Source: a virus
Strand: one strand, 5' to 3'
Virus record (IMG/VR): IMGVR_UViG_3300032401_001514
Location: 1 to 64,000 of that record
Length of the DNA stretch: 64,000 nt
Under the pieces are notes generated by a model, which did no database searches, was not told the origin of the DNA, and saw only the letters and a list, made by a program, of their open reading frames with translations. Positions within the stretch are counted from its first letter, which is position 1. Each line of letters opens with the position of its first letter. Of the stretch, positions 801 through 27,206 are shown in pieces. The translations under genes and the position numbers were made by a program.

Positions 801-1297
801 TTGTTTCATTTACTGGACATAGAAAAATTGGAGCTGGATACGGATCTAATCCAGCAAAAGACTATGTTATTTCCGAGTTAGAAAGTATATTAAAAGAATT
901 GAAGCCTGAAGGATGCATATCTGGTATGGCCATTGGTTTTGACCAAATAGCCACATTAGTGTGTATCCAATTGGGCATTCCATTTGAAGCAGCAATTCCT
1001 TTCTCGGGCCAGGAGAAGCGTTGGCCTTTCGATATTCAAAATGAATACAATTCTATTTTGGATAAAGCGGTAAAGAAAACTATTGTTTGTGAGGGAGAAT
1101 ATTCTGCTAAAAAAATGCAGATAAGAAATGAATACATGGTTGATAATTCTGATACTGTGGTTTGTTGCTGGGACGGATCAGCTGGTGGAACCAAAAATTG
1201 TCTTGATTATGCCAAGAAGATGAACAAGAAAATAATCAGAATTGACCCTAATGCTTATATCTCAGTAGTTCAACTGGATAGAACGGATCTTTCCTAA
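797..1297 (+). CDS. YspA/DUF1273-type SLOG family protein
   Basis: VSFTGHR, ISGMAIGFDQ, RNEYMVDNSD, WDGSAGGTKNC motifs. Confidence 0.85.
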   Translation: MIVSFTGHRKIGAGYGSNPAKDYVISELESILKELKPEGCISGMAIGFDQIATLVCIQLGIPFEAAIPFSGQEKRWPFDIQNEYNSILDKAVKKTIVCEGEYSAKKMQIRNEYMVDNSDTVVCCWDGSAGGTKNCLDYAKKMNKKIIRIDPNAYISVVQLDRTDLS

Positions 1298-1332
1298 AGA
1301 TTTGGCTGCAAGTTCGAATCTTGCCTGAGATG
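1259..1332 (+). tRNA. tRNA-Arg(CCU), overlapping the last 39 nt of the SLOG CDS
   Basis: Acceptor atctcag/ctgagat, D-loop with GGA, anticodon loop ttcctaa, T-arm gcaag-ttcgaat-cttgc. Confidence 0.85.
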
Positions 1333-1358
1333 CAGTAAAGTTTTGGCATTTATATACA

Positions 1359-1643
1359 ATGTCAAAACATGAAATTAAAGACGAGCGTAAAATAGTTGAC
1401 AATGCAATACAAAACTGTAAAGGATTTATTGACGCACTTGAATGGGTAAAACAAATAACTGATGATTCTGCTGTAAATGATAAGATTGTAGAAACAGAAT
1501 ATTTGATGGCTGAATATAGAGAAAGACTTCATTCTATAATGATTGAAGAAGGCCGGAAAGAAGAAAAAAAGAATAGAAATTCTAAAAATAAAAAAGAAAG
1601 ACAAAAAGATGAAACCAGAATTAGACAAACAGCTTTGCGATAA
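1359..1643 (+). CDS. hypothetical protein
   Basis: 94-aa ORF with a basic low-complexity tail. Confidence 0.5.
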   Translation: MSKHEIKDERKIVDNAIQNCKGFIDALEWVKQITDDSAVNDKIVETEYLMAEYRERLHSIMIEEGRKEEKKNRNSKNKKERQKDETRIRQTALR

Positions 1644-2010
1644 ATTTCCAATTTTATATAGAGATAGAGGCGCCAGCATGCAAGAAACTTGTATGTGTTG
1701 GGGGTTCCCAGGTTCAGGTTGGTTTAATTTAATTCATGATCTTTCTCAAAAATTAGAAGCAATTGCTGCATCACAACCGGATGATGAAAATAGATTAAAA
1801 GCAACGCAAGTAAAAGAAAAATTTGGAACGTTGCGCTTTTATACTAATCTATCATCGCCAGAAATAGATGACGCAATACATGAAGCAGAGAGGCTGTCAG
1901 CTATTACTTGCGAACAATGTGGTCAGGATGGAAGTAGACGTGGTATCGGCTGGATATTCACAATGTGCGATAAATGTTATGAAGAGTATGAAAAGAAAAG
2001 AAAAGGGTAG
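1609..2010 (+). CDS. conserved phage hypothetical protein (QVKEKFGxLRFY family)
   Basis: QVKEKFGTLRFY motif plus two CxxC pairs; start re-placed at ATG 1609. Confidence 0.75.
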   Translation: MKPELDKQLCDKFPILYRDRGASMQETCMCWGFPGSGWFNLIHDLSQKLEAIAASQPDDENRLKATQVKEKFGTLRFYTNLSSPEIDDAIHEAERLSAITCEQCGQDGSRRGIGWIFTMCDKCYEEYEKKRKG

Positions 2011-2040
2011 TATGCCGGGACGACTCACTGGCTGCCTGCT

Positions 2041-3051
2041 ATGACAAATATTCTTTTAGCAAGACATAAACTTCCTTCAGATTGGCTTGACGCTTCATAT
2101 GGGGAGCCGTATGTTGTCAAGGACATTCTGCTTAATACATTTGATCTTCAAAAGGAATTTAGTTATACATATGACGAATTGAGTTATCCAACATCAACTG
2201 GATATCCTCCATTAGTTTCTTTGTTAGAGGATAAACATCAGGCTCCGGTTGTCATTACTCATGGAGCTAAACAAGCATTAGGGGCTGCGTTTTACGCCTT
2301 ATCTAAATTGAATAAGTTTGATATGTATTTACCCAAACCATATTGGGCTCTTATTCCTCCTATAGCTGAAATACATAATATAAATTGTTTGGCATCAGAC
2401 TTTAATGGTTACGATAGTTATTGTTGTGTAGCTCCAAATAATCCTGATGGCAGTTGTCCTACTTCTGATGATCTAAAGAAGTTGGAAATAATAATGGAAT
2501 ATAAAAAAAATGTATTAATTCATGATGCAGCATATTACAGTCATGTTTATTTGCCGGAAAATTATAAATTAGATGTAATTGGTGATGTTCAGATTTATAG
2601 CATTTCTAAATTAACTGGTTTATCTGGATTAAGATTAGGATACGCAGTATGTAAGAACCCTGAATTTTATCGAATGATTCAAGAGTATGTAGAGATTATG
2701 ACTGTTGGGGTTTCGGTATTACCACAAATATTACTTTATGATCTCTTATTAAAAATGAAAAGATATCCAGAAGACACTAAGGCTTTTGAAAATAAATCGA
2801 ATTTAGCTTTACGTAATTCTAAGAACATTATAAAGCAAGTTAATCCTGATATTCTTGAAGTTGGAGATTTAGAAAATAATAATGGTATGTTTGGTTGGTT
2901 TAAATTGGGACCAAAAGCAAATCTTGATAAAGCTAAGATAAAAGTCGTGGACGGAAGTTTGTTCGGAGTTCCAGGTTTCATAAGAATGAATCTTGCATTT
3001 GATGAAAACAAAATGCAAGAAATTGTTCAAAAACTAAACAACAGTATTTGA
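2041..3051 (+). CDS. PLP-dependent class I/II aminotransferase
   Basis: THGAKQAL, PNNPDG, IHDAAY, YSISKLTGLSGLRLGY (PLP lysine) motifs. Confidence 0.85.
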   Translation: MTNILLARHKLPSDWLDASYGEPYVVKDILLNTFDLQKEFSYTYDELSYPTSTGYPPLVSLLEDKHQAPVVITHGAKQALGAAFYALSKLNKFDMYLPKPYWALIPPIAEIHNINCLASDFNGYDSYCCVAPNNPDGSCPTSDDLKKLEIIMEYKKNVLIHDAAYYSHVYLPENYKLDVIGDVQIYSISKLTGLSGLRLGYAVCKNPEFYRMIQEYVEIMTVGVSVLPQILLYDLLLKMKRYPEDTKAFENKSNLALRNSKNIIKQVNPDILEVGDLENNNGMFGWFKLGPKANLDKAKIKVVDGSLFGVPGFIRMNLAFDENKMQEIVQKLNNSI

Positions 3052-3058
3052 GGAAAAA

Positions 3059-3247
3059 ATGTTAAGTTCATATTTATGGTTTGCATTAATAACTAATGTA
3101 TTATCAGCGATGGTGTATATAGTTGATTTACTTAGTGATAAAGAGCGGCCAAGAATTGTAAAATACAGTGTTGGGTATGATTCATTTGGTTTGATTTTGG
3201 CTATATCACTTGCTGTATGGGTAATGAAGTGTTTAAGTTTATTATAA
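3059..3247 (+). CDS. small two-helix membrane protein
   Basis: 62 aa with two hydrophobic segments. Confidence 0.5.
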   Translation: MLSSYLWFALITNVLSAMVYIVDLLSDKERPRIVKYSVGYDSFGLILAISLAVWVMKCLSLL

Positions 3248-3249
3248 AC

Positions 3250-3306
3250 GTATAGGTGGCGAAATTTAGTAGACGCACTATGTTGAGAACGTAGCGATCT
3301 TTGACC
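3250..3306 (+). pseudogene. truncated tRNA-Leu(GAG), 5' two-thirds only
   Basis: Leu-type D-arm tggcgaaatttagtagacgca, anticodon stem ctatg/cgtag with loop ttgagaa; no T-arm or acceptor 3' strand; abuts the stop codon of an antisense HNH gene. Confidence 0.65.
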
Positions 3307-3308
3307 TA

Positions 3309-3971
3309 CTAGTTTATTTTTCCAATATTTTTGCCGCAATAAGTTTCTGTTTGAGAGTGACAATTTGGACATAGCAACCTAAGATTCTCAATTCTGTTAT
3401 CTGTTGGTGAGCCATTTATATGATCTAATTGTAATGCTATTTGTTTATTTTGCCATTTGTTTATTTGACAAATAAAACATTTATTTTGAAAAATACCTTC
3501 TTTGAGTAATCTGTGTTTTAAATTATAACTACTTGTATATTTACTATTAATTATCAAAATTGATTTCATTGGTATTTTTGGTGTCCAATTATGTGTTTTG
3601 CCTCGTAAATGAGCTTGCCCAGTCCAATGATTAATATCTATTTTTAAATCATTTATTTTTTTATTAATCCATCGTACATTGCCTCCGCCATAATTTAAAC
3701 CAAATGATTTTAACACACTTTGGCGACTTAAAAGTAATTTACATTTTTGTGTAATTTGTGCATTTGTAATTAATAATCTTTTTGTTTTTTGTGTATTGGT
3801 TTTATCATACAGATTTAAATTAAGTTTTTTGCAACGATTTTTAAAAACAGAATAAGCGTTTCCTCTTGCATTAAGACCCATTTTAAGTAAAGCTTGATAT
3901 ATATTGTTAGAAGATTTTACAGCATTAATAAAGTCTTCGTCAGAAATTTGGTAGACGCTTTTATTTATCAT
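3309..3971 (-). CDS. HNH homing endonuclease
   Basis: CFIC...LQLDHING...NRIENLRLLCPNCH motif; start re-placed at ATG 3971 because the longer ORF runs through two tRNAs. Confidence 0.85.
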   Translation of the reverse strand: MINKSVYQISDEDFINAVKSSNNIYQALLKMGLNARGNAYSVFKNRCKKLNLNLYDKTNTQKTKRLLITNAQITQKCKLLLSRQSVLKSFGLNYGGGNVRWINKKINDLKIDINHWTGQAHLRGKTHNWTPKIPMKSILIINSKYTSSYNLKHRLLKEGIFQNKCFICQINKWQNKQIALQLDHINGSPTDNRIENLRLLCPNCHSQTETYCGKNIGKIN

Positions 3972-4013
3972 AAATATATGACTATTAATACATATGTTTA
4001 TAAAAGAAAATTT

Positions 4014-4095
4014 GCTCAGGTGATGGAACAGAAGACATGCGGTTCTCAAAAAACCGTGCTTAAATAGCGTGAGGGTGCGACTCCCTTCCTGAGCA
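4014..4095 (+). tRNA. tRNA-Leu(CAA)
   Basis: Acceptor gctcagg/cctgagc, loop ctcaaaa, long variable arm, A73. Confidence 0.85.
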
Positions 4096-4103
4096 CAAAT
4101 TTT

Positions 4104-4191
4104 TCCGCAAATGGTGAAATTGGAATACACAGCAGGCTTAGAACCTGCCACCCTTAACTGGGTTTGAGAGTTCGAGTCTCTCTCTGCGGAC
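4104..4191 (+). tRNA. tRNA-Leu(UAG)
   Basis: Stem gcagg/cctgc with loop cttagaa, long variable arm, T-arm gagag-ttcgagt-ctctc. Confidence 0.85.
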
Positions 4192-4196
4192 AGTTT

Positions 4197-4586
4197 ATGA
4201 ATTGGTTTAGCTCTATAGGGATACTAAGATATAGCGAACATTACCTAGTGGTTGATGTTGATCCTGGCATTGTAGAATTAGCTAGGTCGTTAGTTCCAAA
4301 AGCATGGTATCTTAATCGTCAAAAGTATGCTCCGCATATTTCTGTTGTTAGGCACGAAAACCCTGTAGTATTAAAAAATTGGGGAAAACACGAAGGTAGA
4401 GAAGTAGAATTTAAATATTCTACTTATGTTTATAATGATGAGGTTTATTATTGGTTACAGGTTCTTAGTCCAACCTTAAATAATATAAGAATTGAATTTG
4501 GATTAAGCAAATTTAGTGAAAGGTCAAGACCTCCTGATGGTCATGATTGTTTTCACATAACGATTGGAAATACGAAGAAGGTGTAA
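4197..4586 (+). CDS. 2H phosphoesterase (T4 gp57B/Acb1-like)
   Basis: Two Hx[ST] motifs: PHISVV and FHITIG; about 130 aa. Confidence 0.7.
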   Translation: MNWFSSIGILRYSEHYLVVDVDPGIVELARSLVPKAWYLNRQKYAPHISVVRHENPVVLKNWGKHEGREVEFKYSTYVYNDEVYYWLQVLSPTLNNIRIEFGLSKFSERSRPPDGHDCFHITIGNTKKV

Positions 4587-4587
4587 G

Positions 4588-5223
4588 ATGGAAACTGTTA
4601 GCATAGAAACGATTAAGTCATTACGAAATAAGACGAACATTAGCCTTGACGCTTGTAGAAAAGCTCTTATTGAATCTAAAGGTGATATAGATGAGGCTTT
4701 AATTGTTCTTCAGAAACGCGGAGAATTAAAAGCTAATGAGCTATTTATTAAAGCAACAAATGAGGGATTAATATATTCTTATATTCATGATTATAAGATA
4801 GGCGTTATGGTTGAGGTAAATTGCCAAACTGATTTCGCTGCCAGGTCTAAAGAATTCAAGGAGTTCTGTGAGGTTGTTGCATTACAAATTGCAGCTATGA
4901 ATCCAATGTTCATTGACGATTTATCTGATGAAGAGAAAGATAAACAAATGTCAATTTTTAGGGCACAAATGGATTCATCTAAACCAAAGCCAGAGCAGGT
5001 TTTAGCAAAGATATTTGATGGCAAATTAACAAAATTGAAGAGCGAATTTTGTTTATTAAGTCAAGAGTCTGTTTTTATCCCAGGAAAAACGATTGAACAG
5101 CTTAGGACAGAATTGGTATCCAAAATTGGCGAGAACGTTTCCATAAAACGTTTTGTGCGCTGGGAAGTTGGCGTTATTAAACCTATAAGTAAAGCAGACA
5201 CCACCCAGGCTTGTACTGCATAA
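4588..5223 (+). CDS. tsf: translation elongation factor Ts (short form)
   Basis: IKSLRNKT...CRKAL N-terminal UBA-like region; EGLIYSYIH; VEVNCQTDFAA; IGENVSIKRFVRWEVG. Confidence 0.92.
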   Translation: METVSIETIKSLRNKTNISLDACRKALIESKGDIDEALIVLQKRGELKANELFIKATNEGLIYSYIHDYKIGVMVEVNCQTDFAARSKEFKEFCEVVALQIAAMNPMFIDDLSDEEKDKQMSIFRAQMDSSKPKPEQVLAKIFDGKLTKLKSEFCLLSQESVFIPGKTIEQLRTELVSKIGENVSIKRFVRWEVGVIKPISKADTTQACTA

Positions 5224-5492
5224 AAACGCCTATCTATATGATAGGTGACAGTGAAACGTTTGTTATTAACGATAGATCGAAAACCTTGATGGAGAAACTG
5301 CGATCTGAAATATTAAAAAATTTCAGAATGGTTTGGTTATATCTTTACAAAGAGAAAGATGGTAATTATGAGATTTCTGCTGCAAATCAAGAAGGCGGCA
5401 AATTAACCAAAGATGAAATATCTGCTATAAAGAGATTTGCAACGGATTTTATGTTGGATCCTAAAAATAAAGACGATTTTTTAAAGTTTTAG
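5211..5492 (+). CDS. hypothetical protein
   Basis: 93-aa ORF; true start may be ATG 5238. Confidence 0.55.
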   Translation: MYCIKTPIYMIGDSETFVINDRSKTLMEKLRSEILKNFRMVWLYLYKEKDGNYEISAANQEGGKLTKDEISAIKRFATDFMLDPKNKDDFLKF

Positions 5493-5496
5493 GCTC

Positions 5497-5524
5497 TTGA
5501 CATTTCCGCAAAAAGTAGTACGAT
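5497..5524 (+). promoter_or_regulatory. sigma70-like promoter
   Basis: TTGACA-N16-TACGAT in an intergenic gap. Confidence 0.55.
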
Positions 5525-5545
5525 ACTAACTCTGTTCCGTCCTAA

Positions 5546-5585
5546 CTGGTTTCATATGCCAGATAGTACTGGTTCAAATCCGACT
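5546..5585 (+). pseudogene. degenerate tRNA(CAU) remnant
   Basis: Stem ctggt/gccag with loop ttcatat and a ggttcaaatcc T-loop motif; no D-arm or acceptor pairing found. Confidence 0.35.
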
Positions 5586-5741
5586 CTGATACTAAAGAAA
5601 GTATAATGCAAACAATAGTTTTGAACAGATTATGCCACGTTGTTAATGGTGAACGGAAAATTATTGAAATAGAAGTAGATGACGATTTTCCGACAGAAGA
5701 AATTAAAGCCAAAGCTACAGTTGCGGCCAAGAGATTAACAC

Positions 5742-6056
5742 ATGTCTTCGGAAAAGAAAAAAAATAGAGAGAATTTTCGTAACGTTGTTTTTGAACGTGA
5801 TAAACATAAGTGCGTAACATGTGGTGTATCTAATGTGCCATTGGACGCTCATCATATAACTGATAGGAACGAAATGCCTAATGGTGGATATGTTAAAGAG
5901 AATGGAATTTCTCTTTGCTATAGTTGTCATTTAAAGGCAGAGAAGTTTCATATTTCTAACAAGACAGAATTCGAGCCTGGCTATCATCCTGCCGATCTTT
6001 ATCGGATGATTAAATCTGATTATGAAAAAGCTGTCAAGGCATCTAATGCTTTATAA
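5742..6056 (+). CDS. small HNH endonuclease
   Basis: VFERDKHKCVTCG...LDAHHI...NGISLCYSCH. Confidence 0.8.
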   Translation: MSSEKKKNRENFRNVVFERDKHKCVTCGVSNVPLDAHHITDRNEMPNGGYVKENGISLCYSCHLKAEKFHISNKTEFEPGYHPADLYRMIKSDYEKAVKASNAL

Positions 6057-6064
6057 GGTATAAT

Positions 6065-6538
6065 ATGTTTTCTAGAAGAAGTTTCATAAAATCACTAGGA
6101 TTAATTTCATTATTTAACGCATTGCCTGCTGCTGCTATTAAAAATGATAAAATTAATCCACCACAAAAACGAAAAACAAATATTATCTTAATTAAAAACG
6201 GGATAATAGTTGGGCGCGCTAAAGCAATTGATCTCTTAGAGACCCGCACTATTTCTTCTGATTTTTCGGTAGCATCTCGTATTTCAGTGTCAGGAAAGTT
6301 ATGGCTAGTTTTGTTAAATAAATCAAAAATTAAAAAACTGTTTAATAACAAGATTGCATCAAATTCTCAATTAGAACCATTTGATATAATAATTGCAGAA
6401 ACAGAAGTTCGTCAGGCAACTGAAATAAAAAACGTTTGGATAAATACTCCAATAGTTCAATATGGAACTGATGATTTTATAGTTATTGATAATATTGAGT
6501 GGCAAGCAGAATACATAAGAAAGCAGATAATAGATTGA
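6065..6538 (+). CDS. Tat-signal protein resembling a contractile tail-tube fold
   Basis: SRRSFIK twin-arginine motif, hydrophobic stretch and AAA cleavage site; PFDIII...IKNVWI...WQAEYI recalls myophage tube proteins (unverified recollection). Confidence 0.5.
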   Translation: MFSRRSFIKSLGLISLFNALPAAAIKNDKINPPQKRKTNIILIKNGIIVGRAKAIDLLETRTISSDFSVASRISVSGKLWLVLLNKSKIKKLFNNKIASNSQLEPFDIIIAETEVRQATEIKNVWINTPIVQYGTDDFIVIDNIEWQAEYIRKQIID

Positions 6539-6571
6539 TATATAGTTAAGTGAACAAAACATAAATTTTAC

Positions 6572-6645
6572 GGGCATATATCTCAATCTGGTTAGAGAAA
6601 TCGGCTGATAACCGGTGAATATAGGTTCAAATCCTATTATGCCTA
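6572..6645 (+). tRNA. tRNA-Ile(GAU)
   Basis: Acceptor gggcata/tatgcct, loop ctgataa, standard cloverleaf. Confidence 0.9.
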
Positions 6646-6651
6646 CTGTGC

Positions 6652-6734
6652 GCGGGTGTATCGAACCGGTCTTATAAATCGGATAATCGTAGCCTGGTAT
6701 ATTGCAAACGCGGGTTCAAATCCCGCCGCCCGCA
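6652..6734 (+). tRNA. atypical tRNA-Ile(UAU): no D-arm, 27-nt post-anticodon segment containing GG
   Basis: Acceptor gcgggtg/cgcccgc, 7-nt linker, stem ccggt/atcgg with loop cttataa, T-arm gcggg-ttcaaat-cccgc, A73. Confidence 0.75.
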
Positions 6735-6798
6735 CAATAATATTAAACTAATTATCGAGTGCTCTTGGATTTTCTAATCCTAATTTTAGGAGATCCTT

Positions 6799-7329
6799 AT
6801 GAGTAGAATAGAAAATTTCCTTCTCAAGTTCGTAGACATATTTAATTTAGATAGACGAGTTGTTTCTCGTGAAGATGGCGAGAAATATTTAACTCGTTAT
6901 TATATATTTAGGAAGCCTCTGAAATGGATGCCTAGTATATACATCCATTGTTTTCATAATGGCGATCCTGATTTAGAGCTGCATGACCACCCATGGTCCA
7001 AATCAATATCATTTATATTGGATGGTTCGTATCTTGAAGAAAAGAGATATGAGACAGATCATCCATTGATTCCATTATATCATGATCTTGACGCAAATTA
7101 TAAATATCTGGAAATGGATTTAGGCCCAAGATATAATGTTAATGTTAGAAAGTTTTTACAAGGAAATATAAACTATATACGTGGAACAGATTTTCATAGA
7201 GTTCAGTTGTTGACTCCAAAAGTGTGGACGCTATTTATATCCGGTCCTAAGATAAAAGATTGGGGATTTTGGGATAGGCATACAGGTAAATACATAGGGC
7301 AAGAAGAGTTCTTAAATAGAAAGATATGA
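6799..7329 (+). CDS. cupin-like phage protein
   Basis: IHCFH...DLELHDHPW...ILDGSYLEE...FHRV pattern; aggag RBS. Confidence 0.7.
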   Translation: MSRIENFLLKFVDIFNLDRRVVSREDGEKYLTRYYIFRKPLKWMPSIYIHCFHNGDPDLELHDHPWSKSISFILDGSYLEEKRYETDHPLIPLYHDLDANYKYLEMDLGPRYNVNVRKFLQGNINYIRGTDFHRVQLLTPKVWTLFISGPKIKDWGFWDRHTGKYIGQEEFLNRKI

Positions 7330-7341
7330 TTAGTAAAACAC

Positions 7342-7415
7342 GGGCCTTTAGCTCAATTGGTTAGAGCAACTCCCTTTTAAGGAGAAGGTTCTCGGATCGT
7401 TCCCGAGAAGGCCTA
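7342..7415 (+). tRNA. tRNA-Lys(UUU)
   Basis: Acceptor gggcctt/aaggcct, loop cttttaa; T-loop atcgttc (A54/U58). Confidence 0.88.
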
Positions 7416-7653
7416 CTATAAAAACAAATGTCATTATCCCAAAATAACAAGCGACAACTAATAAAATAATATATCTTTGAAATGAAAAACACAACCGCAG
7501 CACATAGATTCCGTGAAGCGGCGGACAAAATTTGGCAAATGGCAGAAGAGTACAGAGAAAAAGATTTAGAACTTGCGAAAGCTCTTAAAGATTTGTCTTC
7601 CGAACTACACAGCATTGCCCGTATTAAAGAAGAAACGGCTGGCTTAACTTAAG

Positions 7654-7860
7654 GTGGTATCAATGATTGAAGCATATCAAGAAGTCGCAAATAGAATTTC
7701 GGAATTAGCAAATGAGTTTGAAGATTGCGATGAGGTTTGTCAGCATTTGAAAGCTGCCTCCAGTCGTATCGCTAATTTAACTATAAAAAAAGGATCTATT
7801 GTTAAAATGGCTAGCGTTGATACAGCAGAAGAAACGTCAGAACTAGCAGAAGCCGTATAA
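7654..7860 (+). CDS. hypothetical protein
   Basis: 68-aa helical ORF. Confidence 0.45.
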   Translation: MVSMIEAYQEVANRISELANEFEDCDEVCQHLKAASSRIANLTIKKGSIVKMASVDTAEETSELAEAV

Positions 7861-7892
7861 AGACTCAATTATGGGCTGGGCAAGTTATCATA

Positions 7893-7965
7893 GGGACTTT
7901 AGTTTACTCGGGTAAAACCGTTGGTTTGCATCCAGCAGAAATCGGATCGTAACCGATAAGTTCCA
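7893..7965 (+). tRNA. tRNA-Ala(UGC)
   Basis: Acceptor gggactt/aagttcc with G3:U70, loop tttgcat; T-loop atcgtaa (A54/U58). Confidence 0.88.
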
Positions 7966-8199
7966 CTATTTTGGTATAACAAAATTGAAATTTATATATT
8001 TCAATGGAAACTTTGGCGTATAAGTCATAGATATAAAAGCTGTTTGATTTTTTATATAAGCGTCTGTTATATTAATATCATCCAAAAAATAATTATCTAA
8101 TACGGCCTTTTTTAACAAAGGCTTAGCTGCTTCAATAGGCGGTTTATCATAAAAAGATGATTCAATTTTATTAAGCGAAAACAATGTGTCCGGTTTCAT
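7966..8199 (-). CDS. hypothetical protein
   Basis: 77-aa ORF antisense to the tRNA block. Confidence 0.45.
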   Translation of the reverse strand: MKPDTLFSLNKIESSFYDKPPIEAAKPLLKKAVLDNYFLDDINITDAYIKNQTAFISMTYTPKFPLKYINFNFVIPK

Positions 8200-8232
8200 G
8201 TTTGGTTATATAACGTTATAGTCGAGAGATTT

Positions 8233-8304
8233 GCCTCTGTGGTGTTAATGGTAACATGCTAGTTTCGTAATCTAGTGATTTCGGTTCGATTCCGAGTAGA
8301 GGCT
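8233..8304 (+). tRNA. tRNA-Thr(CGU)
   Basis: Acceptor gcctctg/tagaggc, loop ttcgtaa, U73. Confidence 0.85.
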
Positions 8305-8307
8305 CAA

Positions 8308-19805: not shown

Positions 19806-20816
19806 TTATACCACTATTTCAAATAATTTATCAGCAAGATCAATCAATCCTTTACTATTCTCTACTTCTTTTCTGAGACGGATCGGGAATGCTGTAAGAC
19901 CCCATTTGGCGCCGACTAAAGCGCTATACATACTAGCATTTGTATCTGTGTCCCCACCACATTTTATAAGTTCACACATTGTATTTACAACATCACGTTT
20001 TTTACGTGTATTAAAGAAAACTGCCACGGCGGTAATCCAAGAGCGATCTGCACGACTATCAACTCCAATATTAAATGCGATGGAACTGATATCTCGCATA
20101 CGAACGGCTTGTTTTAGTTTATCTGAAAATCTGCTATTTCCAAAAAAATCAAGTTCAACTCGGTTCATATTTTCCAATAATTTTTGTTTAGAACGATTAT
20201 TGTTTATCAAATCAGCAATAAGCACACTTTGTAAAACGCCGGCTGTGATACCAAGTTCATGATGTGTAATTTTACCAACAGAAATGATACTGTTGATACA
20301 GTGTTTTATTTCGCTTTTAGATCTTTTGCCAGCGTTAACTTCCTCTATAATTTGGCTTAAATAGAGGCCGAGCGGAGCTGCACGCATGGCAACTCCATTA
20401 CCAACCCCCAAAGATGTGTCAGCTGCCCTAAACCATGGCACACCTTTTGTTAGCCGCTCTACAGCAGCGATAGTAGAACGACTCCATCCACGAAGCACTT
20501 CTCCGCTTTCAAAAATTTCTTTTAATCGCAAAGCCTGATCGAATGGATCAATACAATTTTTGATAGTAATTGATTTAATCAAAGGAATCATTAATTGAGT
20601 ATCATCGGTCCAGCTACCACGCTTTTGAATGATATCACCTCTTGTACGGAAATGATCAATAAAATCTCCGGTGATTTTTGCAGCGGGATTAGCTTCAATT
20701 TCTGCTTTGCTCATACTTTCAGTAGGAGCGCCTAAGGCATCACCAATAGCCGTACCAATAATTGCGCCACGAAACCTAGATTTGCGCTGAGAATCAACTG
20801 TTATTAATGTTATCAT
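19806..20816 (-). CDS. ADP-ribosylglycohydrolase (DraG/ARH family)
   Basis: IGDALGAP, TDDTQ, GNGVAMRAAP, GGDTDT motifs; start re-placed at 20816. Confidence 0.9.
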   Translation of the reverse strand: MITLITVDSQRKSRFRGAIIGTAIGDALGAPTESMSKAEIEANPAAKITGDFIDHFRTRGDIIQKRGSWTDDTQLMIPLIKSITIKNCIDPFDQALRLKEIFESGEVLRGWSRSTIAAVERLTKGVPWFRAADTSLGVGNGVAMRAAPLGLYLSQIIEEVNAGKRSKSEIKHCINSIISVGKITHHELGITAGVLQSVLIADLINNNRSKQKLLENMNRVELDFFGNSRFSDKLKQAVRMRDISSIAFNIGVDSRADRSWITAVAVFFNTRKKRDVVNTMCELIKCGGDTDTNASMYSALVGAKWGLTAFPIRLRKEVENSKGLIDLADKLFEIVV

Positions 20817-20823
20817 TTTTATT

Positions 20824-22332
20824 TTACTTTGAAAGCGTTGAATGGTATGCGTCTGTTCCGCCACTTGTTGAGATGATCATATTAGTTTTAGCATGATGAA
20901 GATCTATGTCTATACCACAATGGTATTCTTGGGGGTTGTTAAATTGTTTTACATCCTCAGACAACTTAGATAACTGTGTTTGTGCATAATCTCTAATTTC
21001 ATTTAGAGATGGTTGCATACGAACAAGTTTGCCATTTCTGATTGAAGGCTCTAGAATTTTATAATTATTGATTTTTTTCATATTATATTTTTGTTGCCTA
21101 GTTGCATCGTTATGCTGAACTGCCGTAACTTCTTCTTTATTTGAATCTAAAAGAAGCTCATCATAAATCATATCACCACAAAATTTTCCATCTTTTTCAA
21201 AACGTACAGCATTAAGTATACCAGGGTTACTAGTTTTTATTGTTTGATCAGAAAGCTTAATTTTTGGAATCCAAACGCCATTTTTTTGTATGGCTCCCAT
21301 TTTATAAACACCGCCTAGAGCTGGTTGGCTATTAGATGTTATCATTTTGGTACCAACAATCCAAGAAGCAATGGTCGCCCCCTGCAACTTAAGTGATGAA
21401 ATTAACATTTCATCCAAATCGTTACTACCGCCAATTATTACATCATGAAGTCCGGCATCATCCAGCATTTGCCGTCCACGTTTCGATAAGAAATTTAGAT
21501 CGCCAGAATCTAAACGAATGCCAATTGGCTTGTATCCATTATTTTTTAATTTAGCACATGCAGTAATTGCGTTTTTTATTCCACTAATTGTTCCATATGT
21601 ATCTACCAGAAACACACAATTATTTGGCAGAGCTTTTGCATATGTTTCGAAAGCTTCCAGTTCAGAGTCAAAAAACATTACGAACGCATGTTGCATTGTT
21701 CCGCCGGCTTTTATGCCTAACGTCTTTCCTGCCCATGTATTGGACGTTCCTTTGATTCCGCCAATGTAACAGGCTCTTGTAGCAGAAAGAGCCCCATCAA
21801 GCCCCTGAGCCCGTCTAAGCCCTCCATCAAGTACTGGGTTGCCACCTGCCGCCCGCACCATTCTTGACGCCAATGTAGCAAATAGCGTTTGAGAATTTAA
21901 TGTGCATAGAGCGAAAGATTCTATAAGCAATGCGTCTGCTACAGTGCCAATGGTTCTTATCATTGGTTCATGCGGAAAAACTACTGTGCCTTCTGGAACA
22001 GCATCAACATCGCATGTAAAACGAAAGTCACTCAGGTATCTAAAGAAACCATCATCTTGAAAAATTCTTTTGCCATCATTTCCTTCAATACTGGCTAAAT
22101 AATCGATATCCGTGGAATCCATCTTGAAATCAGTAATCCAGTCTTCAAGATATTCTTTGCCAGCACAAATAGCGTAGCCTCCATTAAAAGGAGAGGACCT
22201 ATGAAACATATGGAAGCAACTTTTTGTTTCGTGTAAGTTTGCTTTCCAAAATGCATAAAGCGCGGTGAATTGGTAAAAATCAGCAACCAACGCTAAAGAT
22301 TGGTTACCATATATTTTTTTCAGGATGGCCAT
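20824..22332 (-). CDS. pncB: nicotinate phosphoribosyltransferase
   Basis: ADFYQFT, GLRRAQG, GTSN, GTMQH (phospho-His), LVDTY, GIRLDSGD, SNDLDE, LGGVYK. Confidence 0.92.
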   Translation of the reverse strand: MAILKKIYGNQSLALVADFYQFTALYAFWKANLHETKSCFHMFHRSSPFNGGYAICAGKEYLEDWITDFKMDSTDIDYLASIEGNDGKRIFQDDGFFRYLSDFRFTCDVDAVPEGTVVFPHEPMIRTIGTVADALLIESFALCTLNSQTLFATLASRMVRAAGGNPVLDGGLRRAQGLDGALSATRACYIGGIKGTSNTWAGKTLGIKAGGTMQHAFVMFFDSELEAFETYAKALPNNCVFLVDTYGTISGIKNAITACAKLKNNGYKPIGIRLDSGDLNFLSKRGRQMLDDAGLHDVIIGGSNDLDEMLISSLKLQGATIASWIVGTKMITSNSQPALGGVYKMGAIQKNGVWIPKIKLSDQTIKTSNPGILNAVRFEKDGKFCGDMIYDELLLDSNKEEVTAVQHNDATRQQKYNMKKINNYKILEPSIRNGKLVRMQPSLNEIRDYAQTQLSKLSEDVKQFNNPQEYHCGIDIDLHHAKTNMIISTSGGTDAYHSTLSK

Positions 22333-22338
22333 ACGATC

Positions 22339-22366
22339 ATCATAACCATTACTGAAAAAATGTCAA
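22339..22366 (-). promoter_or_regulatory. sigma70-like promoter of pncB, leaderless geometry
   Basis: TTGACA-N16-TATGAT-N6-ATG with no Shine-Dalgarno. Confidence 0.65.
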
Positions 22367-22383
22367 CTGTCGTTTGTAAGATT

Positions 22384-22458
22384 TGGAGCCCAAAGAGAGC
22401 CTTATACTCCCATCAACCAACGATTTGCTGGCCGCTTTGTAAATTAAGCTATTCGGGC
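22384..22458 (-). ncRNA. tRNA-like cloverleaf RNA with non-canonical loops and encoded CCA
   Basis: GCCCGAA-UA-GCUU-AAUUUACA-AAGC-G-GCCAG-CAAAUCG-UUGGU-UGAU-GGGAG-UAUAAGG-CUCUC-UUUGGGC-U-CCA; all four stems pair; TATAAT 6 nt upstream. Confidence 0.8.
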
Positions 22459-22505
22459 ATAAAGATTATATATCACAATATTTTTTTGTTTGTTCAACAA
22501 AATTT

Positions 22506-22898
22506 CTAGTGTAAGAAATGTCCGAACAAAGATTGTGCTAAGGTGGTGGTAAGACTTAAAATACCGGCAATAATGGCTACTCTAAGTTGCCATTTATTAG
22601 CCTCAGCTGTTTTTTGCATTTTTTTATTTTCATCAATCCATTCTTTTACGGATTCAATATTTTTTTCTGCCGATAATAATCTTCCTATGAGAGAACGATC
22701 ACTGCTTTCATCTCTTAGTATTTTGGATAAAGATTTGACATCATCACGCAAAGCGGATACCTCTGTGGTAACGCCTTTCATAGCAACGGCGCCAGAGTGA
22801 ACATCTGTTTGCAATTCATGAAGTAACTTGGAAGTTGATTCTAGGCCTTTAGCAAATTGTTCTGCTAAAATACGGCTTGCATCATTATTATCAACCAT
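22506..22898 (-). CDS. coiled-coil protein with a C-terminal membrane helix
   Basis: Heptad pattern followed by VAIIAGILSLTTTL. Confidence 0.6.
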   Translation of the reverse strand: MVDNNDASRILAEQFAKGLESTSKLLHELQTDVHSGAVAMKGVTTEVSALRDDVKSLSKILRDESSDRSLIGRLLSAEKNIESVKEWIDENKKMQKTAEANKWQLRVAIIAGILSLTTTLAQSLFGHFLH

Positions 22899-23457: not shown

Positions 23458-23685
23458 CTAATAATTTTGGCTATAAACTTTTCTTTTATTTCTAGCTTTG
23501 CGTCGTTTATCCTTCATTAAAATACGTAAAGTTGTTTTTATTGGTTCTCCCGCTTCGTCTTTGCCTATTTCAACAAGATCATCAAGCTCAGTTGGGAGAC
23601 CCTGCTGTTTTCTCTGAAGCGCCCATTGCTCTTTTAATTGTGAGAATACTTTTACTTTCTTTTGTATTTTTCTTATCTGGCTCAT
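23458..23685 (-). CDS. hypothetical basic protein
   Basis: 75-aa ORF. Confidence 0.45.
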   Translation of the reverse strand: MSQIRKIQKKVKVFSQLKEQWALQRKQQGLPTELDDLVEIGKDEAGEPIKTTLRILMKDKRRKARNKRKVYSQNY

Positions 23686-24178
23686 ATTTTTTATTCCTTA
23701 GTTCATGAAAATCATGAGTAAATTCATCAATCATGACATTGTTTACTTTTTTTGGCGTTTCAACAAAGTTGTCTATCATTCTTTGTATTGCTTCTATCGG
23801 CACACCGTGAACATTAACTTTGTGGCATTCTTTAGCGGAACACCCAACAATTGAATGAACTGCAACATTGTAGCCAGAATCAGTGGCAAATTTTATATAC
23901 CATTGAAACTCTCTAAGTTTTATATTAGTGTTATCTACTATAACCAAAGCTTCGCCACTAGCTAGCGCTTCTTTGAAGTTTTCGCGGCATTTATCATGTG
24001 CCGCTCCTAGTAATTTTGGATTGAATTTGTAATTTATTGGATTGTGAGGTTTATCGAAATAAAAGAAATGATCAGCGCTGCAAATAACCGCAGGCATACC
24101 ATACTCCGCCTCTAAATATAGAGTTAAAGTTGTTTTCCCCGATCCCGGTACGCCACGCATGATAATTACTTGTTTCAT
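23588..24178 (-). CDS. P-loop polynucleotide kinase-like protein (AAA_33/N4BP2-like)
   Basis: IIMRGVPGSGKTT, ICSADHFF, VIVDNTN, VHGVP; start re-placed at 24178. Confidence 0.85.
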   Translation of the reverse strand: MKQVIIMRGVPGSGKTTLTLYLEAEYGMPAVICSADHFFYFDKPHNPINYKFNPKLLGAAHDKCRENFKEALASGEALVIVDNTNIKLREFQWYIKFATDSGYNVAVHSIVGCSAKECHKVNVHGVPIEAIQRMIDNFVETPKKVNNVMIDEFTHDFHELRNKKYEPDKKNTKESKSILTIKRAMGASEKTAGSPN

Positions 24179-24182
24179 TGTA

Positions 24183-24560
24183 TTACCCGAAAATTTCATT
24201 GTTTTCAATTCTCTCTTTTAAATCTTCTATTATAAAAGAGGCTGCTTTCCAGTCATGTTCGTTAGGAGTGTCTTTATTTACAGAATCAAAAACCCAGTCC
24301 CACATACTGGTATCTAAAAAGAAATCAGAATATGTAGGATGAAACGCTTCTGGGTAAATATTGACCTGATAATCTTTTAATGCCATTAGCTCAGATATAA
24401 ATTTGGAAAATTCCTTATTTTTATAAGCATCTATTATATTAGTAATATAATCGGCTATTTTAGTTCTATCTTCCATTGAAGACTCTCTAAAATCGGACCC
24501 TTCCATTGCGTGATCTGTTAATAGTTCTGCGGCCTGTTTAAATAAACTCTCTATGCTCAT
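24183..24560 (-). CDS. hypothetical protein
   Basis: 125-aa ORF. Confidence 0.55.
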   Translation of the reverse strand: MSIESLFKQAAELLTDHAMEGSDFRESSMEDRTKIADYITNIIDAYKNKEFSKFISELMALKDYQVNIYPEAFHPTYSDFFLDTSMWDWVFDSVNKDTPNEHDWKAASFIIEDLKERIENNEIFG

Positions 24561-24565
24561 GTTTG

Positions 24566-25153
24566 TTATTCCAAAATATGAGGGCTTCTTTTAATATGTG
24601 GAAGATGGTCCACGCCATCGTCCATTAACTTCTTCCAGAGTATATAGGCGTTCTGAGTATCGACAAGTGCGTTATGTTCTCCGAACTTAGCTTTTGCGTT
24701 CACTATTTCCAATGAAGCTCTTAGATTAAGTTTCGGATTGGCTATTCCATGTTTTATAGTATAGCTTCTGGTAAATTCCTTAGTGCATAGCCACAAATGA
24801 GCTGGAAACGTTTTATTAACCGATTGCCACAAGGCGTGAACAAACCTTTTATCGAATGAAGCGTTGTGCGCAATCATACAGCGATGCTCTGGCGTTTGTC
24901 CATCCTCTTCTATAAATTTTTCGCAAAACTCAACTACTGCCAGTCTACTTTCACCTTTAAATAAATCGGCTTTGGTTCTGTTTGTAATTTGAAGAGCTTG
25001 TGCAGAGGCTCGTTCTGGATGTTCGGCTTTTATGTATTTATCTAGCTGGTGTCTATCAGAACATCTAACTAATGAAATCTGCGTAACTTCATGTTGTTTT
25101 GAATCTAGGCCGGTAGTTTCCGTATCTAGTGCGTAGTAGATTATATTTGACAT
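24566..25153 (-). CDS. DEDDh 3'-5' exonuclease
   Basis: LDTETTG, AHNASFD, HNALVD. Confidence 0.9.
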   Translation of the reverse strand: MSNIIYYALDTETTGLDSKQHEVTQISLVRCSDRHQLDKYIKAEHPERASAQALQITNRTKADLFKGESRLAVVEFCEKFIEEDGQTPEHRCMIAHNASFDKRFVHALWQSVNKTFPAHLWLCTKEFTRSYTIKHGIANPKLNLRASLEIVNAKAKFGEHNALVDTQNAYILWKKLMDDGVDHLPHIKRSPHILE

Positions 25154-25526: not shown

Positions 25527-27206
25527 ATGATTATACATGTTGCCCACAGGACAAAGATGTTGCGAAGCTTAGCCAGATGTGCCAGAATGGTTGTTTTCAG
25601 AAAGGTTGCGGTAGAGCTTATGCAAATCAACAAGTCGCCAACAGAAAACAGGATATTTGATCTGTTATTAGCTGTTGTTAAAGATAAAGCTCCCGATACT
25701 GTATTAAGAGTTGCCGGAGGCTTTGTGCGTGATCGTTTACTTGGCAAAGAATCTCATGATATAGACATTTCCATAAATAACATGAGTGGTGAGCAATTTG
25801 CCAATCTAGTTAAAAATTATATGGACGAACATGGTATTCATACAAAAGGAGTGTCTGTAGTAAAAGCAAATCCGGACCAAAGCAAACATTTAGCTACCGC
25901 AATGATAAATATATTTGGTCTTTCTATAGATTTTGTTAATCTGAGGAAAGAAACATATTCAGAATCCAGAATTCCAACTATTGAACCAGGAACTCCGGAA
26001 GAAGATGCTAGGCGCAGAGATTTAACTATCAATTCTATATTTTATAATATCAATGATGATAAAATAGAAGATTTTGTTGGTGGTATAGAAGATTTAAAAA
26101 ATGGAATAATTAGAACTCCCATAGATCCTATACAAACATTTATTGATGATCCTTTACGTATTTTACGAACAATTAGATTTGCTTCGAAATTTGGATTTAA
26201 TGTTGCTCCTGAAATATTAGAAGCGGCAAATAATAAAGATGTACAAGATGCTTTCAGATCGAAAGTAAGTGCTGAACGTGTGTGGAAAGAACTTGCCGGT
26301 CAAGCAGAACCTGAAGGATGGAAATCAGGATTTTTGACTGGTCCAAATCCACACGAGGCAGCCAAGCTATTAGGTCAGATGGGCCTAAGAGATATATTAT
26401 TTGGATTAAATGAGGAAGAGCAAAAGCAGCTTGGTTTGTCAAAAGGAATGGTGTCATTTGATACCGAACAACATAATCCTCATCATGATTTAAATGTCTG
26501 GGAACATACTTTAAAAGTATTGGAATTTTTAGTAAAAAAACAGACTACCGAAGAACAAAAAAATAAAGCGGAAGATTATCTTGTAAGAAACATTTCCGCT
26601 CTATTACATGATATTGGCAAATGTGATATTTGCGCTATACAAATGTACTCTACAGATCATCCGGAATATAAAGCGCGTATTGAAAAGCTTAAAGAAAAAT
26701 ACGGACTAACTCATGAGGGAGAGCTTCGTGCTTTTGAAGGCCATGCCGAATCTTCTGCTAAAATGGCAGAATATGTTTTAGACAGAATGAAAGCTCCAAA
26801 AAATATTAGCAAGAGAGTAATACGTCTTGTTAAAGAACATATGCGCCCTCATGGCATGACTAATATATCTGATGCAGGATTACGAAAGTTTATAAAAGAT
26901 CTTGAAGATGACTGGAGACATTCATTAGAATTGGCTATAGCAGATGCTTATGGCAAGAACACACACGAGCCACAAACAAGAGATAAATATGATACTATAA
27001 TTAAACGTATCGATGAAATAATATCTCAAATGGGCGGAACGAAAGTAAAGCCTCCAATTACCGGAAATGACTTAATGCAATTAGGTTTTAAGCCAGGTCC
27101 GACAATGGGTAAGATTTTACACGCTTTACAAGAAAAACTACTTGAGACGCCAAATATGAGCAAAGAAGAAGCCATTGAATTTATTAAAAATTTAAATATT
27201 CAATAA
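25527..27206 (+). CDS. cca: CCA-adding tRNA nucleotidyltransferase with an HD domain
   Basis: RVAGGFVRD, DIDI, RRDLTIN, DDPLRILR, HTL...LLHDIGK; lone plus-strand gene in a minus-strand block; start may be 25557. Confidence 0.9.
   Translation: MIIHVAHRTKMLRSLARCARMVVFRKVAVELMQINKSPTENRIFDLLLAVVKDKAPDTVLRVAGGFVRDRLLGKESHDIDISINNMSGEQFANLVKNYMDEHGIHTKGVSVVKANPDQSKHLATAMINIFGLSIDFVNLRKETYSESRIPTIEPGTPEEDARRRDLTINSIFYNINDDKIEDFVGGIEDLKNGIIRTPIDPIQTFIDDPLRILRTIRFASKFGFNVAPEILEAANNKDVQDAFRSKVSAERVWKELAGQAEPEGWKSGFLTGPNPHEAAKLLGQMGLRDILFGLNEEEQKQLGLSKGMVSFDTEQHNPHHDLNVWEHTLKVLEFLVKKQTTEEQKNKAEDYLVRNISALLHDIGKCDICAIQMYSTDHPEYKARIEKLKEKYGLTHEGELRAFEGHAESSAKMAEYVLDRMKAPKNISKRVIRLVKEHMRPHGMTNISDAGLRKFIKDLEDDWRHSLELAIADAYGKNTHEPQTRDKYDTIIKRIDEIISQMGGTKVKPPITGNDLMQLGFKPGPTMGKILHALQEKLLETPNMSKEEAIEFIKNLNIQ

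Follow-up and report, generated by a model that had tools for sequence, protein, structure and literature searches.

A tRNA-shaped, apparently non-decoding element upstream of the nicotinate phosphoribosyltransferase operon of a very large phage

Introduction

RNAC and RNAD of phage T4 are tRNA-like in character. They are also described as species 1 and 2 stable RNAs; both are small, come from the tRNA region of T4 and have no known role (PMC3014915). The subject of the present study is a tRNA-shaped element of 75 nt on the minus strand of virus record IMGVR_UViG_3300032401_001514, which resembles the T4 RNAs in that it would give a small phage-encoded RNA other than an ordinary tRNA. The record comprises 129.6 kb, and its first 64,000 nt, referred to here as the window, contain the element. 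Because a record of this length was rated about 30% complete by CheckV, the host genome of the element is that of a very large phage. RNAC and RNAD lie inside the T4 tRNA cluster and are co-transcribed with the tRNAs, whereas the element is on the strand opposite to the last tRNA gene, has a promoter-like site of its own, and stands 8.6 kb away from that gene, in agreement with the distance of more than 8 kb given in an initial annotation of the window.

Several cellular RNAs are also known to have a tRNA shape outside translation. Staphylococcal non-proteinogenic tRNA-Gly loses GG and TPsiC and feeds Fem ligases. The tRNA-Other of Bacillus cereus is tRNA-shaped and does not serve translation; its anticodon is that for Trp, and its target is a T box (PMC3399842). 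The likeness of the element to these RNAs lies in a tRNA shape that is probably used outside translation. Both of them, however, are cellular RNAs with a 7-nt anticodon loop that can be used and with at least weak charging, whereas the anticodon loop of the element is non-canonical and variable and no conserved charging identity is visible in it. Chen et al. have described the YrlA-type Y RNAs as non-coding tRNA mimics that also occur in phages, and one of them is cut by RNase P and receives CCA (Chen et al., 2014, PMC4201824). A tRNA-like domain in a phage-encoded RNA would be common to these RNAs and the element. The Y RNAs have an extra Ro-binding stem, adjoin a Ro60/Rsr gene and keep the standard modification sites of the T and D loops, whereas the element is a cloverleaf only and has non-standard letters at positions 18, 19, 55 and 56.

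Plant mitochondrial t-elements and mascRNA are tRNA shapes kept for processing enzymes, and what defines them is that RNase P and RNase Z have been shown to cut them out of a longer transcript. The element resembles them in its position at the boundary between transcription units. It differs in being known from its sequence alone, and a relative of it on another phage contig (L014, see below) appears to be a stand-alone unit with a terminator. Finally, to our knowledge, all characterised phage tRNAs that counter defences are working decoders. Phage tRNAs with altered anticodon loops have been reported to escape tRNA-targeting defences (PMC10264068; PMC11555353). Such tRNAs are phage-encoded and have an altered anticodon loop, as does the element, yet they remain decoders that replace cleaved host tRNAs, whereas the element lacks decoding features.

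Sequence and shape of the element

The element is located as follows.

22384–22458, minus strand: tRNA-shaped element of 75 nt, with stems of 7, 4, 5 and 5 bp, zero mismatch, canonical spacing and an encoded CCA

The acceptor stem consists of 7 bp with one G:U pair and is followed by UA and a 4-bp D stem. The D loop of 8 nt, AAUUUACA, is without GG and is followed by G26. The anticodon stem consists of 5 bp, two of them G:U, and encloses the loop CAAAUCG, which is without U33 and purine 37. A variable region of 4 nt, a T stem of 5 bp, the T loop UAUAAGG, the discriminator U and CCA complete the element. The minus strand reads exactly as the initial annotation had written it, including the canonical stem and loop lengths, the encoded CCA and the core residues U8/A14, A15:U48 and U54/A58. 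Overall, the residues retained are U8, A14, A15 with U48, A21, G10:C25, G53:C61, U54, a purine at position 57 (A57), A58 and NCCA; those gone are G18, G19, U55 and C56, positions 55 and 56 being A and U. Judged by these letters, the T-loop core can still form, and the letters of the standard elbow contacts are replaced.

The minimum free energy (MFE) fold of the element is a cloverleaf (-26.5 kcal/mol, z -2.46). In this fold the anticodon arm extends to 7 bp with a 5-nt loop, and C32:G38 can close the loop. When the exact canonical geometry without stem mismatch was scanned over the 129.6-kb record, four matches were obtained, namely three ordinary tRNAs and the element, and CCA follows the element alone. 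The same scan of 40 first-order (dinucleotide-frequency) Markov resamples of the genome gave no match. A chance fold was ruled out by these 0/40 shuffled genomes and by the expectation of 0.125 per genome for the acceptor/T-arm/NCCA pattern defined below. The 129.6-kb record holds one copy of the element and no second copy was found in it, so that a reading as a repeated or mobile element was rejected. A captured host tRNA or attachment site was also rejected, as 20- and 21-nt degenerate patterns from both halves of the element had 0 matches in 185,579 species genomes.

Conservation in closely related phages

The element occupies the middle of a 173-nt gap, with a 130-aa open reading frame (ORF) upstream and the gene of nicotinate phosphoribosyltransferase (NAPRTase) downstream. 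Its placement just upstream of an operon named pncB-ARH in the initial annotation is borne out by Pfam matches to NAPRTase and ADP-ribosylglycohydrolase (ARH). The genes concerned are the following.

22506–22898, minus strand: 130-aa gene with a hydrophobic C-terminus, directly upstream of the element; no Pfam or PHROG match, homologues in related phage contigs; used as a synteny marker
20824–22332, minus strand: NAPRTase gene, directly downstream of the element; Pfam NAPRTase_N and NAPRTase_C, with homologues
19806–20864, minus strand: ARH gene, next in the NAPRTase operon; Pfam ADP_ribosyl_GH, E 1.9e-45

On metagenomic contigs of related phages, which are designated L002, L003 and so on, the same succession of genes is found again (176 aa, 130 aa, gap, NAPRTase, ARH). 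At least 24 contigs, indexed in 30 blocks of the collection, encode the 130-aa marker protein without a change. The exact element was found in two haplotypes, of which one is shared by the window, L010 and L011 (identical) and the other by L006 and L013. These two forms align without gaps and have different letters at 8 of the 75 positions. Between the window and L006, fourfold-degenerate sites have diverged by 29% in the NAPRTase gene (185 sites) and by 33% in the 130-aa gene (46 sites), and the binomial probability of eight or fewer differences in 75 positions at the fourfold-site rate is about 9e-5. Of the 17 positions in the spacer 3' of CCA, 7 differ, as do 16 of the 49 positions upstream of the element, where there are indels in addition. 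The contrast of 8/75 with 29–33% fourfold divergence and with the diverged spacers points to purifying selection on the element.

Three of the differences fall in stems and all keep the pairing, with U:A changed to U:G once and G:U to G:C twice, so that 42 of 42 stem cells (counting both haplotypes) are paired. The initial annotation had argued for selection rather than decay, and the low divergence relative to the roughly 29% at fourfold sites, together with the retained pairing, bears this out. The other five differences are in the D loop, at position 26, in the anticodon loop (two) and in the T loop; the discriminator also differs. The L006 copy has the same cloverleaf fold (z -3.36), again with a predicted 5-nt anticodon loop. 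The anticodon loops read CAAAUCG in the window and CAUAACG in L006, and C32:G38 is pairable in both. The nominal anticodon is AAU in the window and UAA in L006, and the discriminator is U and C, respectively, in copies that are 89% identical. A switch of both anticodon and discriminator between such similar copies is hard to square with a fixed decoding or charging identity, and both haplotypes are without U33 and purine 37. The element is thus almost certainly not a decoder, as had been suspected from the window copy.

Coding does not appear to account for the conservation of the element. An antisense 69-aa ORF (22300–22509) was considered and rejected, because the corresponding L006 frame has 40 codons from stop to stop and no ATG. 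In the antisense frame the differences between the copies appear to alter at least about six residues, as judged from the two translations compared by eye. Scans of a viral contig collection with DNA patterns, or guided by the 130-aa protein and NAPRTase, gave no matches, and a search of a phage collection with the element gave one short unrelated match only.

Comparison with tRNA detectors and known RNA families

The element was not called by ARAGORN at default settings, though 13 tRNAs were found in the record. It had no match to the Rfam tRNA model (RF00005) at the gathering score of 29 bits, and at E≤10 it was unmatched in searches of both 451 nt and 96 nt. The check with tRNA finders proposed in the initial annotation has therefore returned no ordinary tRNA call for the window copy. 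The L006 copy likewise had no Rfam tRNA match at E≤10, and was called tRNA-Leu(taa) by ARAGORN at default settings. At 80% thresholds ARAGORN called the window copy tRNA-Ile(aat); this call was discounted, as shuffled genomes yield about 46 calls each at these thresholds.

Among the features of an ordinary tRNA, the window element has the cloverleaf of 7/4/5/5 bp, the canonical linkers and the 7-nt anticodon and T loops. In place of U33 and purine 37 it has A33 and C37, in both haplotypes. The elbow letters G18, G19 and U54-U55-C56 are not kept, since the D loops read AAUUUACA and AAGUUACA and the T loops UAUAAGG and UGUAAGG. None of the Rfam Y-RNA families matched the window element at E≤10, and its flanks are promoter-like sites that leave no space for an extra Ro-binding stem. 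Genes for TROVE (Ro60/Rsr) and RtcB proteins were absent from the 129.6-kb record, which is about 30% of the genome, so that a distant copy is possible. Domains of the FemAB, LPG_synthase_C (MprF-type) and cyclodipeptide-synthase families were also absent from these 129.6 kb. The element falls outside the ordinary tRNAs on the features tested (Rfam score, U33 and purine 37, elbow letters and default ARAGORN) and outside the Y RNAs. Genes of this kind are overlooked by standard tRNA finders.

The same locus in more distant relatives

Further relatives were scanned with a second pattern, in which a perfect acceptor stem of 7 bp adjoins a 5-bp T stem with a 7-nt loop (U1 and A5) and NCCA follows. 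By chance, 0.125 occurrences of this pattern would be expected in 129.6 kb and about 0.01 in each fetched locus. L014 and L005 gave one match each, in both cases in the correct orientation and immediately before the NAPRTase gene. The L014 element (3103–3195) scores 37.9 bits with the Rfam tRNA model, above the gathering score, and the neighbouring protein is 53% identical to that of the window. It has the D loop AGUUAUUA, the T loop UGAGAUU and the end ACCA, and a 13-nt linker and a closed 7-bp hairpin where the normal anticodon arm would be. A 14-bp terminator with a T run follows on its 3' side, and then a separate promoter-like site for NAPRTase; this arrangement marks the L014 element as a predicted stand-alone transcription unit. 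In the L005 element (1488–1566), which is far more stable than shuffled sequences (z -5.08), the acceptor stem is 7 bp and the T stem 5 bp long, the T loop reads UGUGAUU and the end is ACCA. Its D arm is reduced, it has a 7-bp hairpin with an 8-nt loop, and the NAPRTase there is 67% identical to that of the window.

Common to all four elements (window, L006, L014 and L005) are U54, purine 57, A58, G53:C61 and NCCA. The discriminators are U, C, A and A, and the pairs 1:72 and 2:71 vary between lineages. Pair tables across the four elements were left out of the covariation evidence, because the L014 and L005 elements had been pre-selected for perfect stems. The description of the element as an orphan in the initial annotation has to be qualified, since other tRNA-like genes occupy this position in related phages and the element is one of a set tied to the locus.

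Possible second tRNA-like modules were seen 1–2 nt upstream of the elements in L014 (3029–3101) and L005 (1404–1487), both with cloverleaf-like MFE folds. These modules are weak, with z -0.95 and 19.7 bits with model R1 in L014, and z -1.83 and 9.4 bits in L005. The L014 module ends in ACCA, overlaps a promoter-like site and has a fold no more stable than that of shuffles. The L005 module has the D arm GCUU-loop-AAGC, a stem identical to that of the window element.

The elbow

The pair 19:56 of tRNAs is normally G:C, and A15:U48 and G15:C48 are both normal Levitt pairs. According to the initial annotation, the elbow pairs had been replaced on both sides at once at 18:55 and at 19:56. For 19:56 this is partly supported by the relatives, in which the pair is A:U in L006, as in the window, and U:A in L014, all with 8-nt D loops, which amounts to one double change. 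For 18:55 it is not, since the letters are U:A in the window, U:G in L006 and A:G in L014 and pairing is not kept. The Levitt pair switches from A15:U48 to G15:C48 in L014, which adds little, as both forms are normal. With two independent lineages, a Watson-Crick 19:56 pair would arise by chance with a probability of about 0.06, and synteny is what connects the L014 element with that of the window. Taken together, these letters are suggestive of a compensatorily rewired elbow.

Promoter-like sites

Two promoter-like sites flank the element.

22465–22476, minus strand: promoter-like site P1, TG-a-TATATA overlapping TATAAT (22470–22465), six nt before G1
22339–22366, minus strand: promoter-like site P2 of the NAPRTase operon, TTGACA-16-TATGAT, with the ATG (22332) 6 nt past the second hexamer

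The TATAAT of P1 had been noted in the initial annotation, and the site is conserved in L006. P1 was not called in the promoter scan of the window, where there is no well-spaced first hexamer. In the scan of L006 it was called as TTAACA-17-TATATT, with TG before the second hexamer and 10 of 12 matches, ending 7 nt before G1. The P1 motif is also kept in L002, where other DNA replaces the tRNA-like element. P1 is a putative promoter of the element. P2 is conserved in L002, L003, L005 and L006 with the ATG 6–8 nt downstream, a spacing that suggests a leaderless or near-leaderless NAPRTase mRNA. Because this promoter-like site is conserved in relatives, the NAPRTase operon would need no upstream transcript and is predicted to be independent of it. 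The second hexamers of P2 read TTAnnTTG, which recalls the Bacteroidota TAnnTTTG element. The best cellular NAPRTase matches are from Cytophagia-type Bacteroidota.

Proposed role and alternative explanations

The reading favoured here, to which we attach slightly less than an even chance, is that the element is a tRNA-derived, non-decoding small RNA gene that keeps the tRNA body and would act in trans as a tRNA mimic. Kept in shape by selection, it is probably a working mimic. The element would be transcribed from its own predicted promoter, starting at or next to G1, and the RNA would act in trans, with its acceptor/T-arm helix and CCA tail offered to a protein that binds tRNA. Having lost the anticodon loop and the usual elbow letters, the RNA would be excluded from translation and from several host tRNA enzymes, and the encoded CCA would free it from CCA addition. 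Most likely, it would compete for, or act as a decoy of, a host factor that acts on tRNA ends by sensing, cutting or modifying them. Alternatively, the partner may be the phage's own tRNA-end enzymes, with the RNA as their ligand. The following genes lie two to four kb upstream of the element.

23588–24208, minus strand: AAA_33 kinase, polynucleotide-kinase-like; Pfam AAA_33, PHROG ATPase and polynucleotide kinase families
24566–25153, minus strand: DEDD 3'-5' exonuclease of the RNase_T family; Pfam RNase_T, E 1e-14
25527–27206, plus strand: CCA-adding-enzyme-like gene; Pfam PolyA_pol head, HD and tRNA_NucTran2_2

The decoy role is attractive because tRNA-end and NAD-salvage genes are nearby and because phage tRNAs have been reported to escape defences. 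A bolder version of it is doubtful. According to this version, the huge phages of one clade have tRNA decoys at a constant site next to their genes of NAD salvage and tRNA-end repair, with a re-lettered elbow (19:56 A:U or U:A) and a sealed anticodon loop. Such decoys would be invisible to the ribosome and to host modifiers, and would soak up a host immune effector, either one that acts on tRNA 3' ends by cutting or modification or one that senses tRNA shape.

Several observations weigh against a trans-acting mimic. The initial annotation had proposed a check for covariation and synteny in relatives; the stems do stay paired and the locus is syntenic, but no double compensatory change exists between the window and L006 haplotypes, and only two haplotypes are available. 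The homology of the L014 and L005 elements to that of the window rests on synteny, strand and short shared strings. With model R1 the L014 element scores 16.4 bits and the L005 element (1488–1566) is absent from the matches at E≤10. The perfect-stem filter helped to find both, so their pairing is not independent covariation. In the window, no terminator was found between CCA and the NAPRTase promoter. Other relatives are without the element: L003 and L004 have a weak 27-nt hairpin at the site (z +0.37), L002 has about 390 nt of GC-richer unrelated DNA (L002:60–470) in which a 58-aa Cys-rich ORF lies, and the gap in L020 measures only 55 nt. As the element is lost or replaced in these contigs, the RNA would be dispensable. 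The gap before NAPRTase is best described as a cassette site in which a tRNA-like RNA is common yet dispensable. The L003/L004 hairpin was rejected as a conserved mini-version, since its fold is no better than that of shuffles; it starts with GCCUGAAC, resembles the 5' end of the element in its first eight letters, and may be a deletion remnant.

The main rival is a processing or transcript-end signal acting in cis, which we consider rather unlikely. The tRNA shape would then be kept only as a place for host RNase P, RNase Z or exonucleases to cut or halt, separating the upstream and NAPRTase messages or protecting an mRNA end. The element does sit exactly between two same-strand operons with no terminator on either side in the window, and small hairpins only are present at the equivalent place in L003/L004 and L016. 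What RNase P chiefly requires, the acceptor/T-arm helix and NCCA, is common to all four elements. In L014, however, the strong terminator after the element and the separate NAPRTase promoter leave no message to be split. The conserved NAPRTase promoter and the near-leaderless mRNA predicted from it also need no processing, and the promoter-like site P1 abuts G1. Conservation of the D arm and of the hinge residues (U8, A14, R15:Y48 and A21) goes beyond the needs of a minihelix substrate.

A neutral relic, that is, a dead tRNA gene not yet decayed and conserved through neighbouring promoter DNA or a short divergence time, is improbable. Rejection by standard detectors is what would be expected of such a relic, as is the loss or replacement of the element in several close relatives. 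The divergence is nevertheless about one-third of that at fourfold sites (P 9e-5), and the spacers on both sides have diverged by 33–41%. Six of the most conserved loop positions of tRNAs are lost, yet none of the 42 stem positions is unpaired in either haplotype. Furthermore, tRNA-like genes persist at the locus in lineages that are about 50% identical in the neighbouring protein.

More improbable still is an aminoacyl carrier outside translation, which the initial annotation had proposed alongside a decoy; it would be charged by a synthetase and would donate its amino acid to a transferase, as staphylococcal tRNA-Gly does for Fem ligases. The intact 7-bp acceptor stem and the encoded CCA would suit such a carrier, and decoding features and GG/TPsiC are lost in the element as in the staphylococcal species. 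The changing discriminators (U, C, A and A) and pairs 1:72 and 2:71 leave no constant charging identity visible, and no FemAB, LPG-synthase or cyclodipeptide-synthase domain is present in the 129.6 kb, or about 30% of the genome. The least probable explanation, an unusual working decoder such as tRNA-Ile(AAU) or tRNA-Leu(UAA), as the two copies are named by ARAGORN, has in its favour the default call in L006 and the tRNA-like cloverleaf, hinge residues and CCA, but has very little chance in view of A33 and C37 in both copies, the pairable C32:G38 with its predicted 5-nt loop, the differing anticodon and discriminator, and the silence of the Rfam tRNA model at E≤10 for both copies.

A tRNA mimic acting in trans would thus be a selected, non-decoding look-alike with its own CCA, in which near-universal elbow letters are replaced, and this points to a different viral use of the tRNA shape. 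The element is a compact object of 75 nt for which close relatives offer two natural variants as well as natural loss variants. The partner of one such RNA, if found, would open up the whole class.

Other features of the record

The record has 14 called tRNA genes (window 1259–13810), 13 of them by ARAGORN and one by Rfam only. CCA is encoded by 1 of the 14, tRNA-Gly (9567–9651). The other 13 must rely on CCA addition, and the phage has the CCA-adding-enzyme-like gene at 25527–27206. The Rfam-only tRNA (11656–11734) has an odd D region and shares GAUGGG before the T loop with the element; at 19.4 bits it is the sole other, weak match of model R1 in the window. The genes tRNA-Lys(UUU) (7342–7416) and tRNA-Ala(UGC) (7893–7966) have the T loops AUCGUUC and AUCGUAA, that is, A54/U58, the reverse of the usual U54/A58.

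In L003/L004 (L003:3778–3972), the NAPRTase promoter is separated from its gene by a GC-rich 64-aa ORF. In the 575-aa gene call for P0002, the N-terminus has been over-extended across the insert of L002. The same-strand run after NAPRTase and ARH closes with a gene for a 73-aa IF-1/eIF-1A-like protein with an OB fold (17057–17278), which is conserved there in relatives.
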